From NCBI RefSeq assembly GCF_013122565.1, contig NZ_CP053258.1: 64,000 bases of DNA. One strand, given 5' to 3'. The notes under the pieces are model-generated. The model was not told where the DNA came from and did not search any database. It worked only from the letters and a program-made list of their open reading frames with translations. Within the stretch, counting starts at the first letter, position 1, and each line of letters starts with the position of its first letter. This DNA is from Escherichia coli. GTDB lineage: Bacteria; Pseudomonadota; Gammaproteobacteria; Enterobacterales; Enterobacteriaceae. This document shows positions 21,911 to 28,242 of the stretch, in pieces. The translations under genes were made by a program, and so were the position numbers.

Positions 21911-22017
21911 GATCTACCAGTCCCACTATTTTCCAGAGTTCCTGCCACTATTCCCCCTAACCGTTGTGCATTAAGATTGCTCTTTGCCAATATTGGCCCA
22001 GCGGAGTGATGACTATT

Positions 22018-24060
22018 ATGGATGATAAACAAATTACGGTCTGGCTTAAACACAATTGCTGTTCAACGGACATTCCTGCCATTGCCGAGGCACTAACGAA
22101 CCATGCAGAATGGCTTTTAGAGCTAGCGCCAGATCCTATTGAACAAGGTAGTTCATGTTTACCGCCGACAGCTGCAGCCGGTATTTTTCTTGGCGCAGCG
22201 GCGATGGTTCACTGCGGCGAGGCTAGTGGTGCAGAAACCTGGCTCGAAGCAGCCATTACTGATTACCATTTCTTTAATCCAAATGGATATAGTTCATGGA
22301 GAGGCAGTACGCCTGTTTTTACAGCATTATCGCGTTACCCGGCATTAAGAATGGTGTTATTTAACGCCGCTTGCGCAATGGAAGACTGGAATAAAGCATC
22401 CGCTGTTCTTGAATCGCTTTTCCATGCCAGCGATGTCCCGGAAGATAACCCTGTCGCCCCAAATTTTACCCCTTATGCGCTGAAAGCGTTTATCGCGGAT
22501 TACCACCCGTTAGGACCAGCTCATTATGATGAAACCTGGTTGCTGGCAAAACAAGCGTGGTTAATTAATGCGAGCGTTCTGGATGAGCGAACCTGCAATA
22601 CCTGGAAGCAATATACCCGCCACTTGCGCCATTTGATCCACAATGCACAGTTTGCCGATGCGCTCTCTTTTGTACGCAGTAAAAAAGAACCGTTAAATCA
22701 TATCCATACCTACTCAGACTTTTATCTGTATGCGATTGGTTTATTTTCTTATACTGGTCAGCTAAATGAAGCGCTGACCTGGATAAAACAGTTAATCCAC
22801 AACAATGATGGTCATTTCTGTGATCTTTTCGTTTCAACTGGCAAAGAGCGCCGAATAAAGCCTGAACTTAGTACCTTGCTGAATAATCTCTTGCACAGCG
22901 CAGAGTTTCAGGCGTTGCAGGATAAATATCTCACCGTCGGACATGATGTTGTGCATTCTGGTCCCTTCATGTCAGTTTATGAAAAGGTTCTTGGCGGAAA
23001 GTCCCGAAAGCGCTGCGCGATTAGTCGAAAATTAATCTCGCCCGGCGAAGCGGTTTATGAATATCGTCAGCTGGATAGTGTGGCATATATTGCAGCGAAA
23101 GCGGCCTTTCAGGCATCTGCGCTAAATAATATCGCCCTCCGGCATACAAATGATAGTTATCAGTGGCAGGATTTTGCCGCCCAATGGCCTCGTCGGGGTG
23201 CGCTTTCTCACCCGGATATTGCCCGTTATATGTTTGAGCGCCAGAAAGGGAAATGTTTTGATGCCGCAGAGTTTATTCAACTGATTGCCGAACCGTTTGT
23301 CTTTCCGATGCGTTTCAGATGGGTTGCCGGGTTGTCCTTTGAATTACATCAGTACCCGGATGCCTATTTCGTAAATGACAATATGGCGGGTGAATTTGTT
23401 AATCTCTGCTGGATGGCTATAAAATGCGGACATGCTGGCGACATTTTTAAACAACTGGCGAAGGAGTCGCATGACGTTGCCGACCCTATTTACGCTATGC
23501 TCGCCACGTTTGACCGCGCTGATTGCCGCAGCGCTGCCGCCGCGCACTTTGGACGACCGGAGCTTGCGGAAATAATGGCGCTGGCTTTCAGTTCGAGGTT
23601 ATCGCTCGACAGCGTCCTTACCATCGCTGAGTTTGGTAAAAATCAGCCGCGCTTTTCACATGCGTTGGCAACGGCCCTCCTGCGTTACAACCTGCACATC
23701 TACTCAAACTATATGCCGCAGGTTAACTGGTTCCTTCAGGGGCTGGAACACTATGCTTTGGCAAAAGGCGGTCAACTTTTAAATTTCTTTGTGCATATTC
23801 CAGAACAAATTCCCGTTCTGGCGACCATGCTGGAACATGGCGTATTAGTGCGTGGGATCGGTGAAGGTGCCTATGATGGTTATGATAATTCAGCAAATTC
23901 ATTTCATCATGCCGCCGTGATGCACTGCCTCACGCACGCGCCGGAAAAAGTTCGCTACTGGATGGAAACACCCTGGATTCAGAACTATTTAGTGAATGCG
24001 CCGCTGCGTCAAACGGCGCGCCATGTGGAAGCCTGGCATAAAAAGTTTGGCATCAAATGA
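22018..24060 (+). CDS. Uncharacterised protein of about 680 aa (698 aa from the TTG at 21964); strain-variable insertion between tpx and tyrR
   Basis: Single uninterrupted 2.1 kb ORF; likely start ATG 22018 (GGAG at 22002-22005) or ATG 22009; no recognisable Walker A, TM segment or signal peptide by eye; His/Ala/Leu-rich, presumably alpha-helical; not matched to any family I recognise. Confidence 0.7.
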   Translation: MDDKQITVWLKHNCCSTDIPAIAEALTNHAEWLLELAPDPIEQGSSCLPPTAAAGIFLGAAAMVHCGEASGAETWLEAAITDYHFFNPNGYSSWRGSTPVFTALSRYPALRMVLFNAACAMEDWNKASAVLESLFHASDVPEDNPVAPNFTPYALKAFIADYHPLGPAHYDETWLLAKQAWLINASVLDERTCNTWKQYTRHLRHLIHNAQFADALSFVRSKKEPLNHIHTYSDFYLYAIGLFSYTGQLNEALTWIKQLIHNNDGHFCDLFVSTGKERRIKPELSTLLNNLLHSAEFQALQDKYLTVGHDVVHSGPFMSVYEKVLGGKSRKRCAISRKLISPGEAVYEYRQLDSVAYIAAKAAFQASALNNIALRHTNDSYQWQDFAAQWPRRGALSHPDIARYMFERQKGKCFDAAEFIQLIAEPFVFPMRFRWVAGLSFELHQYPDAYFVNDNMAGEFVNLCWMAIKCGHAGDIFKQLAKESHDVADPIYAMLATFDRADCRSAAAAHFGRPELAEIMALAFSSRLSLDSVLTIAEFGKNQPRFSHALATALLRYNLHIYSNYMPQVNWFLQGLEHYALAKGGQLLNFFVHIPEQIPVLATMLEHGVLVRGIGEGAYDGYDNSANSFHHAAVMHCLTHAPEKVRYWMETPWIQNYLVNAPLRQTARHVEAWHKKFGIK

Positions 24061-24097
24061 ACGTTGCCGCTGCGCCTGAACGGCGCAGCCAGCACAA

Positions 24098-25639
24098 TCA
24101 CTCTTCGCTTTTCTTCTGGTTTAAGCCATATTCCCGCAACTTATTGGCAATCGCGGTATGTGAAACACCGAGACGTTTTGCCAGTTTGCGCGTGCTGGGA
24201 TAATTGCGATAAAGCTGAGTTAATACCGAGCGTTCAAAACGGCTGGTAATTTCGTCCAGCGAACCTTCCATCGCATCTTCGCCCACGGCTACCGTTGCGG
24301 CGTCATAATCAGGCAACAAAATATCCTGAGGACGCAGCTCATAACCGTCCAGTTGTGTCAGTGCGCGATAGATAGCGTTCTTTAACTGCCGCACATTTCC
24401 CGGCCACGCATAACGCGTAAGTACAGTATTCAGGTCAGCGGCCAGTTTCGGACGCGGCACGCCCTGCTCGTCGGCAAAGCGGGCGACGAACAGCTCAGTT
24501 AACGGCATGATGTCCTGCGGACAGTCACGTAGCGGTGGCAGATTGAGCGTCAACACGTTCAGACGATAATAGAGATCTTCACGGAACATGCCTTTTTGCA
24601 CCAGTTCGACCAGATTTTTCTGCGTAGCGCAAATCACCCGCACATCGACATGCACCTCATGGTCTTCGCCAACCCGACGGAAAGTGCCATCATTAAGGAA
24701 ACGCAGTAATTTCGCCTGCATCCGTGGTGACATTTCCCCTATTTCATCCAACAGCACCGAACCACCGTTCGCCTGCTCAAAGAATCCTTTCTTCCCTTCC
24801 GGAGCATGACCAAACAGTTCACTCTCGACCGCATCTTCCGGTATAGACGCACAGTTCAGCGCCAGGTAAGGTTTGCCCGCTCTGGGGCTTGCCTGATGGC
24901 AGGCGTAGGCAAAGAGATCTTTACCTGTACCTGTGTCACCCGTAATCAGCAGCGGCGCGCTTAGCATCGCCAGTTTCTGCGCCTGTTCGACAACGTGCTT
25001 CATTTTCGGGCTGACGGCGACAATTTGACTGAAGGCGCTGACGTCCTGGGCGGCGACATTTTGCAACTGGCGGCCCATACGAATCGTTGATCGCAACATC
25101 ACCACCGCACCGGTCAGGACGTGTTGAGCATTTTCATCCTGAAGATAAACAGGCGTAATCTCCATCAGGAAATTCTGCCCATTAATAACGACATGCTCGT
25201 TATGCGAATCTTGCGGTTCGCTTTCCAGCCAACGTAAAAAATTAAAGCCGTTAATCAATTGTGCGGCGGTATGGTTGCGCAGGCGATCCAATTTTTGCCC
25301 AAAAAGCTGACAGCTCGCCGGGTTCGCCATATCCACTTTGCTTTTCATATCGACAGAGAGCACAGGTTCGGGCAACGCCTCCAGTAACGCGCTCAACGCC
25401 AGATGCTCACGTTCGGAAGGCATCCACGGGACAGTACGCACATCGGTAACACCTGCAATACGGCGTATTTCGGCCATCAGACTGCTGAAACTCTCAAACT
25501 CCAGTTCAGCAAAATTGAGGTAGATTCGCCCAATGGGATCAATCTCAATACCGCGTAAATCAATGCCTCTTAGCACGAGTAGATCGAGTAATTCGCGGGT
25601 CAGACCGAGTCGGTCTTCACAAAAGACTTCCAGACGCAT
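24098..25639 (-). CDS. tyrR: Transcriptional regulator TyrR (513 aa)
   Basis: ACT/PAS N-terminus, sigma54-interaction-type AAA+ domain with GDTGTGKD, C-terminal HTH; start at MRLEVFCEDRLG. Confidence 0.93.
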   Translation of the reverse strand: MRLEVFCEDRLGLTRELLDLLVLRGIDLRGIEIDPIGRIYLNFAELEFESFSSLMAEIRRIAGVTDVRTVPWMPSEREHLALSALLEALPEPVLSVDMKSKVDMANPASCQLFGQKLDRLRNHTAAQLINGFNFLRWLESEPQDSHNEHVVINGQNFLMEITPVYLQDENAQHVLTGAVVMLRSTIRMGRQLQNVAAQDVSAFSQIVAVSPKMKHVVEQAQKLAMLSAPLLITGDTGTGKDLFAYACHQASPRAGKPYLALNCASIPEDAVESELFGHAPEGKKGFFEQANGGSVLLDEIGEMSPRMQAKLLRFLNDGTFRRVGEDHEVHVDVRVICATQKNLVELVQKGMFREDLYYRLNVLTLNLPPLRDCPQDIMPLTELFVARFADEQGVPRPKLAADLNTVLTRYAWPGNVRQLKNAIYRALTQLDGYELRPQDILLPDYDAATVAVGEDAMEGSLDEITSRFERSVLTQLYRNYPSTRKLAKRLGVSHTAIANKLREYGLNQKKSEE

Positions 25640-25709
25640 GGGAACCTTCACCTGAAAAAAGAACAATTAATATGATGATATGACACTATTTGAATAGCAG
25701 GAAGGTTTC

Positions 25710-25727
25710 TGTCAACAATCATTGACA
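25710..25727. promoter_or_regulatory. Candidate TyrR box in tyrR promoter region
   Basis: Palindrome tgtcaacaatcattgaca fits TGTAAA-N6-TTTACA class with conserved G-N14-C spacing, about 70 nt upstream of tyrR start. Confidence 0.4.
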
Positions 25728-25786
25728 CAAAGACGGAAAAACGGGCACTTCGGCGTAAAGATATCCGGTCAGCACCCGATATTGCA

Positions 25787-26848
25787 TTATTTTTCGCTGG
25801 GCGTTTTGCCTTTTTGCAGCGTTTCTTTCACCTGACCGATAAGCTGACGACGGAAATCCCCAAGGCGAGGTTTGTCATCGTCAATCCACGGCAGCGGGCG
25901 GCAAAGCTCCATAGCTTTAATCCCGAGTCGTGCCGTCAGAAGTCCAGCACCAATTCCCTGAGCTGCGCGGGTAGACAAACGAGCAGCGAGATCTTGCGAC
26001 ATCCAGTCCATCCCCACTTCGCGCACCAGTTCGCTGGCTCCGGCGAAAGCGATATTCAGCAATACCAGCTTGAACAGGCGCAAACGGCTGTAATACCCCA
26101 GTTCAATGCCATACAGCGTGGCGATGCGATTAATCAAACGCAGATTGCGCCAGGCGATAAATGCCATATCCACTAGCGCCAGCGGGCTGACCGCAATCAT
26201 CAACGTTGATTCCGCTGCCGAACGGCTGATTTCGCGCCGCGCCTGGGCATCTAAAACTGGCTGGACCAAATGCGCATACAAACTGACCACTTCACGGTCG
26301 TTTTGCGTTTCATGGATTGAGGCATACCAGCGTTGCAGCGCCGGATGTGACTGATCGATGCCCGCCTTCTGCGCCAGTTTTTCGCAAAATGCGCGGCCTT
26401 TGCCGGTTCCGTGGCTATGCAATAAATCACGCGCTTCGTCGCGTTCATGGGCGCGCTGTCGCAAGCGCCATAAGCGCCGCCACTCTGTTACCACGGAACC
26501 TACGCCAGCGCCGATAATCAATGCCCCAGCGGCACATCCACCCAGCGCTACCCAGTCCTGGGTTTGCCAGGCATTCATTGTCCACTGTATACCCTGCCCG
26601 ACAACGCTTGCGCCAAACAGAGCCAGCCCGCCCATCACCATTTTGCGCCACAGGCTGCGTTTCGGACGTAACGCTGCGTCCATTACCGCTTCGACTTGCC
26701 CCTCTTCTTCCTGCGCTTCATCGAGCGTGGCCGGGGCAAAATTTTGCGCCTGATTTTCGTCAAAGGTCTGCTGCGCCCTGAATTTTGGATTCTGATCGAC
26801 CTCCAGCGGACCGTCGAAATCAATACGTGGTTTTAACGGTTCGGTCAT
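25787..26848 (-). CDS. ycjF: Inner-membrane protein YcjF (UPF0283/DUF697, 353 aa)
   Basis: Internal hydrophobic segments; start overlaps ycjX stop by 4 nt (ATGA). Confidence 0.85.
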
Positions 26849-28242
26849 CGCAATTTATCTCCTATTAAAAATTCCAGCGCAGCATCAAGACGAATATGCG
26901 GTAGTGGTTTGTCGACATCCATCACCTGCGGACGAAATGCCTCAAACTGGAAGCCTTGCTTATCCCAGAACGCCTGACCAGGCAAACGTGCGGGAACTTC
27001 GCCAGGATAAACAGTGAGCGGTGCGCCATCGCTGAGTCGATTACCGCGCAGCGCCGGGATTTTCTCACCGTTAACATCAATAATGCCGCTGGTGGTCGCC
27101 TGAACTGACGCCAGCCCCAGGCAGTCCATGCTGATCCCTTCGAACGCCGCATTTTGCCAGGCATCCTGAATCAGTTGTTGCAGTAATGAAACCATATTAG
27201 CGTGCTGATCGATGGTCACATGGTCCGCTTTAGTAGCAGCAAACAATAGCTTATCGATAACCGGCGAAAACAAACGCCGGAACAGGGTACGCTGCCCGTA
27301 GTGAAAACTTTGCATCAGCTGCGTCAGCGCCAGACGCATATCATTAAATGCCTGTGGCCCACTGTTGAGAGGTTGCAGGCAGTCCACCAGCACAATCTGG
27401 CGGTCAAAGCGCAGAAAATGATTCTTATAGAACCCCTTCACCACCTTCTCGCAATAATAATTAAAGCGCTCGCGCAGCATTCCGGCATTGGTATGCTTGT
27501 CGGCCTGCGCCAGTTTGGACTCACCCCAGACATCGACATCCGGCCACGGGAAGAATTGCAGCGCGGGCGCACCTGCCATATCTCCCGGCAAGACAAAGCG
27601 CCCAGGCTGAATAAAGTGCAGCCCCTGCTGTTTACAGTGGTGGAGATAATCAGTCCAGGCGGTGGCAATGTCTGCCAGCCGGTTTTCGTCGGCAGGCGCT
27701 AGCGGGTCCAGCCCTTCGCACATCATTCGCCATTTCGCCGACCACACGCCGCGCTGACCATTGAGTAAGCCCGTCATCTGGCGCGACCAGCTTAAATAGT
27801 CCTGCGCCAGCATCGGCAGGTCGAGCAACCATTCGCCGGGATAATCCACAATCTCCAGATACAGCGTGGAGGTGTCCTTAAAGTGGCGTAGCAGCGAATC
27901 GTTCGATTTAAAACGTAACGCCAGGCGAATTTCGCTGACGCCGCGCGTTGGCGTTGGCCAGGCGGGTGGATTGCCGTACAGCTGCGCCAGCCCTTCATCA
28001 TAGGTGAAGCGCGGAATGCCAAAGTCACGCTGGGGAATGCGTTTTACGCCCAGCAGGCGCTCTTCACGCACCGCGCTTAACAGCGGCAAACGTGCTCCGG
28101 CGTGAATATTGAGCAACTGATTGACCATCGCAGTGATAAACGCCGTTTTGCCGCTGCGGCTAAGTCCGGTTACGGCGAGGCGCAGATGTCTGTCGACACC
28201 CCGATTCACCAGCGCATTAAGTTCATTTTTAAGTCGCTTCAT
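26845..28242 (-). CDS. ycjX: P-loop NTPase YcjX (DUF463, 465 aa)
   Basis: Walker A GLSRSGKT near N-terminus; start at [12 protein letters not shown] (ORF track extension to 28368 rejected). Confidence 0.85.

Follow-up and report, generated by a model that had tools for sequence, protein, structure and literature searches.

An uncharacterised 680-residue protein encoded between tpx and tyrR at a two-state site of the Escherichia coli chromosome

What stands between tpx and tyrR in some strains of Escherichia coli, how it came to be there and what its product may do are the questions raised by a 64,000-nucleotide stretch of contig NZ_CP053258.1 (assembly GCF_013122565.1), referred to in its whole length as the window. 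The genes tpx (21360-21863, +) and tyrR (24098-25639, -) are convergent, and the core genes around the site are mppA-mpaA-ycjG-tpx on one side and tyrR-ycjF-ycjX on the other. In a K-12 derivative tpx and tyrR are only 43 bp apart, in agreement with the tens of base pairs given in an earlier reading made from the letters of the window (the sequence-only reading). Here, one long open reading frame (ORF; 21964..24060, +) lies in between. Its 680-amino-acid (aa) product, a soluble cytoplasmic protein of an uncharacterised family, is already in the databases as a hypothetical protein, being identical to WP_171459435.1 / QJU24355.1, 'hypothetical protein [Escherichia coli]'. The locus is a lead, an uncharacterised single gene and not a demonstrated new system, and the term 'undescribed system' used for it in the sequence-only reading exceeds the evidence.

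The gene is rare in the species. Among 5,426 complete E. coli genomes, the flanks are matched in 5,414 and the ORF in 32 (0.6%), and all 32 copies are chromosomal, annotated as hypothetical and located at the tpx/tyrR site. K-12-type strains are without it, so the description as a lone, strain-variable accessory gene proved accurate. The related proposal of a small strain-variable hotspot did not hold: there is one cargo only, with the same junctions, and no alternative cargo was seen at tpx/tyrR among the 5,426 genomes. The empty alleles, among the matches listed, all span 913 bp, and the number of places per genome is almost always one, which leaves little room for other inserts; tpx/tyrR is therefore a two-state site and not a multi-cargo hotspot. 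Searches of the literature on tpx/tyrR hotspots and on the protein accessions returned nothing relevant, and neither tpx nor tyrR nor ycjF is named in the main text of the survey of E. coli defence hotspots.

Alignment of the occupied with the empty allele shows how the two states differ. Homology stops at 21858 and resumes at about 24097, and the C-terminus of Tpx, which reads ...ALAVLKA-stop in K-12, reads ...ALAVLR-stop in the occupied allele. Because the lost homology takes in the last tpx codons, the event is a replacement of the tpx 3' end and the spacer, not a clean insertion; the insert reported for 21911-24097 is present, but the replaced segment is slightly larger. As the sequence-only reading had stated, no integrase or other mobility gene is carried by the insert, and no direct or inverted repeats bounding it were found. 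Integron attC and transposon readings were dropped on inspection of the sequence, for lack of bounding repeats. Three occupied strains with ORFs up to 6% apart share exactly the same junctions, which points to a single origin and indicates that the occupied configuration arrived once at tpx/tyrR. Since the segment carries no mobility genes, it has likely moved between lineages by homologous recombination within the core genes on either side.

Persistence of the gene in E. coli is accompanied by divergence and decay. By identity to the window copy the alleles form two bands, one at 96-97.5% and the other at about 94%. Synonymous divergence (dS) between alleles is 0.06-0.15 (0.13-0.15 between the allele classes), above the 0.02-0.04 of the flanking tpx, and the ratio of nonsynonymous to synonymous divergence (dN/dS) is 0.28-0.34; together these values indicate selection that is purifying but relaxed, and a long presence in the genus. 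Disruption by a frameshift, a nonsense mutation or IS600 affects about 10 of the 32 copies, and the gene thus persists as a rare presence/absence polymorphism that is often decaying. The insertion sequence (IS) IS600, of the IS3 family, is found inside the ORF in several genomes of Shiga toxin-producing E. coli, for example in E. coli 2013C-4830 (L030:400-3709), and two further genomes keep just the 3' 60% of the gene, beside transposases.

Compared with its surroundings, the composition of the gene is only slightly unusual. Its G+C content is 47.9% and its G+C at third codon positions (GC3) 46.5%, against 51.1% G+C in the window and 48-56% G+C with GC3 50-61% in seven flanking genes, while rare-codon use and a codon adaptation index (CAI) based on the flanks place it inside the range of the flanking genes. 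The lower G+C proposed from a count of the first codons is correct in direction but modest, and the compositional anomaly is weak.

The start codon is taken as the ATG at 22018, because an aligned methionine at this position opens all eight close homologues (676-695 aa), which align with the protein end to end, because the start assigned by PGAP in other strains is the equivalent ATG, and because a GGAG at 22003-22006 lies 11 nt 5' of it (8 nt in an allele that has lost 3 bp). The ORF of the window is intact, and its existence and end are as given in the sequence-only reading, which had left 21964 and 22018 as alternative starts. No consensus sigma-70 promoter was detected in the 107-nt leader (21911..22017). 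Upstream, the hairpin at 21871-21903 (-19.9 kcal/mol, z -4.16 against shuffled sequence), followed by six T residues, is a proper intrinsic terminator for tpx; it is without similarity to the bidirectional hairpin of K-12, where the 43-bp spacer folds differently. Downstream, the hairpin at 24069-24089 has z-scores of -3.2 to -3.7, so both of the flanking hairpins noticed earlier fold significantly better than shuffled sequence. Rfam gave no match within 19000-27000.

Searches with the single protein against Pfam, NCBIfam, PADLOC, PHROGs and PDB sequences returned no match, in keeping with the earlier statement that no function could be assigned. The best Pfam score, TPR_19 at E = 5.8, is not significant, and PADLOC-DB 2.0 contains no family at E<=1. 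Motif scans found no Walker A, GxSxG, HExxH, CxxC or PD-(D/E)xK in the protein, in which no nuclease, NTPase, TIR, SIR2 or membrane effector could be recognised. Hydropathy scans found no transmembrane-like stretch (maximum KD19 1.52), and no signal peptide is present. These results agree with the sequence-only reading, as does the composition (Ala 12.8%, Leu 10%, His 5%), from which a probably alpha-helical protein had been anticipated. Two candidate assignments were rejected. A STAND or P-loop NTPase would have [AG]x4GK[ST], which is missing; the GGKS at 326-329 falls in the loop of a predicted beta-hairpin, without conservation of S329. A J-domain was considered for the HPD at 398-400, where only P399 is conserved family-wide (residue 400 is D in 15/78) and no DnaJ Pfam match exists.

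An AlphaFold2 model built on a 93-sequence alignment is mostly helical and has a predicted local distance difference test score (pLDDT) of 90.7 and a predicted template modelling score (pTM) of 0.91; an earlier run on nine sequences (pLDDT 59.7) was discarded. The model consists of a helical solenoid (1-305), a small beta-module (317-360) with predicted strands at 317-324, 345-351 and 356-360, and a helical domain with two short beta-elements (361-680). In the model, the N-terminal part has the helical hairpins expected of a TPR solenoid. Residues 191-305 are only about 40% identical to Salmonella-type relatives, and residues 456-650 about 70%. The beta-module of the query carries the motif LGGKxRKRC...PG, and the C-terminal domain the signature Y557-x-L-H560-x-Y-S-N-Y-x-P-x(3)-W571, encoded at 23686-23730. 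Feature coordinates are collected in Table 1.

Table 1. Coordinates, in the window, of the gene, the protein parts it encodes and the adjoining features
Feature	Position	Strand	Remarks
Coding sequence, 680-aa protein	22018..24060	+	2,043 nt; ORF list, homologue alignment, database identity
N-terminal TPR-like alpha-solenoid, aa 1-305	22018..22932	+	Variable part of the protein
Small beta-module, aa 306-365	22933..23112	+	Motif LGG[KR]x[KR][KR]C...PG (K328, R332, C333, G343)
Conserved C-terminal helical domain, aa 366-680	23113..24057	+	About 70% identity to Salmonella-type; conservation, fold searches
Leader of the ORF	21911..22017	+	107 nt; contains GGAG 22003-22006
tpx intrinsic terminator, occupied allele only	21871..21910	+	12-bp stem, 9-nt loop, G + T6
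GC hairpin between ORF stop and tyrR stop	24069..24089		8 bp; no T-run on either strand
Segment replacing K-12-type tpx 3' end and 43-bp spacer (occupied allele)	21858..24097		Alignment with empty allele

Positions conserved family-wide are mostly structural (G343, P399, G471, G540, W571 and W648, with G471 invariant); the exceptions are Y557 and the pair C333/H560. C333 is kept in 69 of 80 family sequences and is Asp in seven, and H560 is replaced by Asp or Asn in nine. Such exchanges are as expected of metal ligands and suggest that C333 and H560 form a putative metal or phosphate-ligand site. A loop rich in Lys and Arg (328, 331, 332), in which about 80% of the sequences have K or R at 328 and 332, adjoins C333.

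Fold comparisons did not connect the protein to anything characterised. Foldseek of the whole model against the PDB gave no match at E<=1e-3 and only weaker, TPR-type ones, and against AFDB50 it gave 22 matches at E<=1e-3, all in the same uncharacterised family, and thereafter TPR proteins only. A profile search of the PDB with the family alignment likewise returned weak TPR/PPR matches only. For the C-terminal domain, the whole-model searches of PDB and AFDB50, in which TPR matches may mask weaker ones to this domain, gave no relative whose fold or function is known. The part that defines the family, residues ~190-660 (beta-module and C-terminal domain), has no counterpart in TPR proteins. 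By this lack of detectable relationship the protein is outside all characterised families, a statement that refers to sequence and fold and not to demonstrated function.

The extent of the family was traced by sequence searches. A word-indexed search found eight clusters (676-695 aa, 49-90% identity) in E. coli, Salmonella enterica and other Enterobacteriaceae, one of them with a member labelled 'MULTISPECIES ... [Escherichia]', and an exhaustive HMMER profile search of 1.84 billion cluster representatives retrieved 120 proteins, 48 of them below 1e-30. Many of the 120 are 480-720 aa long, the shared core corresponds to residues ~190-660 of the query, and many relatives are without residues 1-190. 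A Pfam scan of 32 diverse members detected only ankyrin repeats, in two, N-terminal of the core. Uncharacterised members from AFDB and the genome scan come, among others, from Rhizobium, Azorhizobium, Aliirhizobium, Reyranella, Pigmentiphaga, Saltatorellus, Rapidithrix, Desulfovibrio, Listeria farberi, Rikenella, Leptospira and Breznakiella; in AFDB50, three different relatives belong to one species, Candidatus Rikenella faecigallinarum, and one comes from a hydrothermal-vent metagenome. A profile scan of genome contigs with a 16-sequence alignment yielded three alphaproteobacterial loci only, and the 93-sequence profile searched against a 5.8-billion-protein index yielded close relatives only, with no informative names or fusions. 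No copies were found on phages (tblastn) or in IMG/VR, and tblastn of plasmids found one distant copy only, in a Sinorhizobium isolate from an algal phycosphere. Fold matches and the loci retrieved show a family that is sparse across several phyla, in which a variable repeat front end (TPR-like, ankyrin or absent) is joined to a basic beta-module and a conserved helical C-terminal domain.

Relatives occupy five different sites in Enterobacteriaceae, and the non-coding flanks are not conserved between these loci. Between malM and ubiC the relative is alone, and between ydcY and ydcZ there are about 50%-identical tandem paralogues; in Salmonella enterica GCA_046123195.1 (L032:1932-7054) both tandem copies are intact and a TsiV/PF11876 gene follows 48 nt downstream. 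In a metagenomic lineage with the same ydcY-ydcZ arrangement (L008:3305-7484), the first copy is split into ORFs of 358 and 344 aa. Downstream of hrpA, a relative is found in two Enterobacteriaceae lineages, 65 nt upstream of a full-length Tli4_C gene in one and beside a Tli4_C remnant in the other, within arrays that also contain small lipoproteins, an ankyrin lipoprotein and RHS-repeat-like lipoproteins. The relative of Salmonella (serovar Derby and others), P0006, lies downstream of a Peptidase_U32 gene, which we take to be yegQ-like, in an IS-littered island with a TsiV/PF11876 gene 2.3 kb away and DUF4034 and DUF1266 proteins; the TsiV genes of the two Salmonella loci are 68% identical to each other. 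Overall, immunity-type genes of type VI secretion systems (T6SS; TsiV/DUF3396, Tli4_C) are near relatives in four of the six enterobacterial loci outside E. coli, and tandem paralogues are present in two of the six.

Beyond the Enterobacteriaceae, the gene is alone among unrelated metabolic and housekeeping genes, its contexts including a dipeptidase and a GGDEF protein and the neighbourhoods of metH, trmO, rpsO and hisE. No conserved partner gene appears in the contexts examined, several of which are contigs too short to inform. An ankyrin-fused member (L017:4845-9142), from a highly fragmented assembly of an AT-rich genome, is directly downstream of a 675-aa RCC1/WD40-like repeat protein, so that two eukaryote-like repeat proteins adjoin each other; a type I restriction hsdR is located about 5.6 kb from this member. 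Two neighbours of relatives match PADLOC candidate models, namely an orphan TsiV-like protein (L032:6122-7054), which matches PDC-M20B (E = 6e-12), and, weakly, a 223-aa protein upstream of the Salmonella relative (L001:7119-7790), which matches PDC-M17B. These matches raise the possibility that some of the PADLOC 'phage defence candidates' are toxin-immunity components.

The proteins encoded next to the relatives offer the closest comparisons. TsiV/DUF3396 proteins have been demonstrated experimentally to be immunity proteins for the TseV VRR-Nuc T6SS effectors of Salmonella bongori (Hespanhol et al., 2022; PMC9635880). The family shares with TsiV a neighbourhood in two Salmonella loci, a cytoplasmic location, the lack of an adjacent toxin and the occurrence as tandem or duplicated copies. 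The two differ, however, in that no sequence relationship is detectable (hhalign probability 0.3%; no Pfam PF11876 match), in that the 680-aa protein is twice as large and predicted to be mostly helical while TsiV has a central beta-sheet, and in that TsiV has a known cognate toxin and none was found for the family. Tli4_C (PF18426), a periplasmic lipase immunity domain, is encoded immediately downstream of the relative in the hrpA islands of two Enterobacteriaceae, but there is no similarity between them, and the Tli4-like neighbour has a hydrophobic leader-like N-terminus, unlike the query, which has no signal peptide or transmembrane segment. DUF4034 (PF13226) is a name borne by two of the AFDB structural relatives, and a 703-aa DUF4034 protein is encoded in the same Salmonella island as P0006; hhalign against that protein nevertheless gives a probability below 1%, and membership was rejected because neither the query nor the 32 family members match the model. 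DUF4034 is itself uncharacterised and no mention of it was found in the literature searched. More generally, hhalign shows no kinship of the family profile with the neighbouring DUF4034, DUF1266, Tli4-like or TsiV proteins. The single-gene defence systems of PADLOC 2.0 resemble the locus in being lone accessory genes with a variable repeat module fused to a conserved one, and differ from it in that no model matches, the protein has no P-loop and the gene is outside defence islands.

The explanation that we favour, tentatively and at less than even probability, is that the protein is a stand-alone, cytoplasmic, orphan immunity-like protein that neutralises an attack in interbacterial conflict. 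It draws on the T6SS immunity neighbours at four of six loci and the diverged tandem paralogues, together with the frequent decay and the lack of any classical catalytic signature. An incoming toxin that acts in the cytoplasm, or another foreign protein, would be recognised by the repeat solenoid and bound or blocked by the conserved C-terminal module together with the C333/H560 site and the K/R loop beside it; the protein would act alone, without a partner gene. Usefulness of the gene only in the presence of a matching attacker would account for its rarity, its turnover and the many inactivated copies. The cargo had been guessed from the sequence to be defence, immunity or effector genes, and the immunity-type neighbours favour immunity among these, although PADLOC gives no match, neither phages nor IMG/VR yielded copies and no cognate toxin was found. 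Several points weigh against the immunity-like explanation. Real immunity families normally occur beside their toxin somewhere, and no toxin-domain gene adjoins any family member in the ~14 loci inspected; typical immunity proteins are also far smaller than 680 aa. Some relatives are grouped with further immunity genes or form diverged tandem pairs, but the E. coli copy, like the one at malM-ubiC, is entirely alone, and alphaproteobacterial and other distant members lie amid ordinary metabolic genes. An enzyme, too, would be compatible with a strongly conserved C-terminal domain and a possible metal site, and the link to immunity genes could merely reflect shared 'junk-yard' islands.

One alternative is a role outside conflict, as a niche-specific cytoplasmic adaptor, regulator or metal-dependent enzyme that is dispensable and is being lost from most Escherichia. 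This is doubtful, if worth serious attention: the distant relatives are chromosomal, single-copy and surrounded by metabolic or housekeeping genes, conservation of the C-terminal domain is strong and a Cys/His pair shows metal-ligand-like substitutions, the dS between allele classes relative to tpx suggests long residence over recent import, and the 'MULTISPECIES' cluster label accords with it. No conserved operon partner or pathway context hints at metabolism, however, and a frequency of 0.6%, relatives at five different Enterobacteriaceae loci, tandem arrays and immunity-gene neighbours are unusual for a housekeeping gene. The same rarity, frequent inactivation in E. coli, patchy spread across phyla and slightly low G+C would also fit a stand-alone anti-phage protein, whose TPR or ankyrin end would sense a phage protein and whose C-terminal module would be a new effector stopping infection; variable repeats with a conserved module are a common defence architecture, and one distant member is near the HsdR gene mentioned above. 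Yet no PADLOC model matches even at E<=1, no defence island was seen among the loci examined (in E. coli the flanks are core genes, and the site is absent from the main text of the hotspot survey), none of the usual effector domains is recognisable, and neither phage tblastn nor IMG/VR gave a prophage or phage-satellite copy, so this is unlikely. Cargo of a mobile element (integron cassette, transposon, prophage or plasmid) was rejected as well: terminal repeats, a recombinase and phage copies were not found, and the one plasmid relative is the distant Sinorhizobium copy.

Two further explanations are less probable still. The E. coli gene could be a decaying relic, kept by drift and by hitch-hiking with tpx/tyrR alleles, which is compatible with the other readings; about a third of the copies carry a frameshift or an IS600 insertion and no convincing promoter was detected, but the window copy and 22 others are intact over 2 kb despite 6% nucleotide divergence, and a dN/dS of about 0.3 means purifying selection, making the relic explanation very improbable. 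Least probable of all is a secreted effector against eukaryotic host cells. Repeats of the TPR and ankyrin types are typical for this class of protein, two relatives are ankyrin-fused, one of them beside the RCC1-like repeat protein in the AT-rich genome, many carriers are host-associated, and such a role would explain why no immunity gene adjoins the E. coli copy. Against it, no secretion-system genes, chaperones or VgrG/PAAR are near any locus, no secretion signal or catalytic domain is recognised, and relatives also come from non-host samples (hydrothermal vent, algal phycosphere). A broader version of the conflict reading, itself improbable, would make the gene the founding E. coli example of phylum-spanning single-protein conflict modules, with interchangeable TPR or ankyrin sensors and a new C-terminal fold with a Cys/His (metal?) site and basic loop, each protein acting unaided by a partner gene as a broad, toxin-agnostic immunity factor or a new phage-defence effector.

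Some observations concern the flanks of the site. The tyrR of the carrier strain E. coli E200086 (L013:5188-6729) differs by a dS of about 0.14 from the alleles of the window (24098-25639), K-12 and CFSAN004176, while its tpx differs by only about 0.03, which suggests a breakpoint of recombination at the insert or close to it. Positions 1-21300 of the window are covered by the genomes that match best (98.9% identity) in two pieces spanning ~25.3 kb, so about 4 kb are absent from the window, somewhere between the ttcA/dbpA side and mppA. On E. coli plasmids there are 38 query matches, and the one listed is a fragment of tpx of ~250 bp at 93.6% identity (NZ_AP045062.1 57153-57401, matching 21609-21857 of the window); it appears that plasmids have acquired parts of this core gene.

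Even if its function turns out to be mundane, the protein defines a domain-of-unknown-function family of about 120 clusters with a confident structural model, in which K328/R332/C333, Y557/H560/Y562, G471 and W571 are candidate functional residues. The natural presence/absence polymorphism at a defined E. coli site makes the gene easy to test. If the immunity-like or defence reading is true, the gene would represent a new family of proteins, with a new fold, that acts alone in conflict between bacteria, and it would have a bearing on how orphan protective genes are maintained away from mobile elements, flanked by core genes, probably spread by recombination and often decaying.

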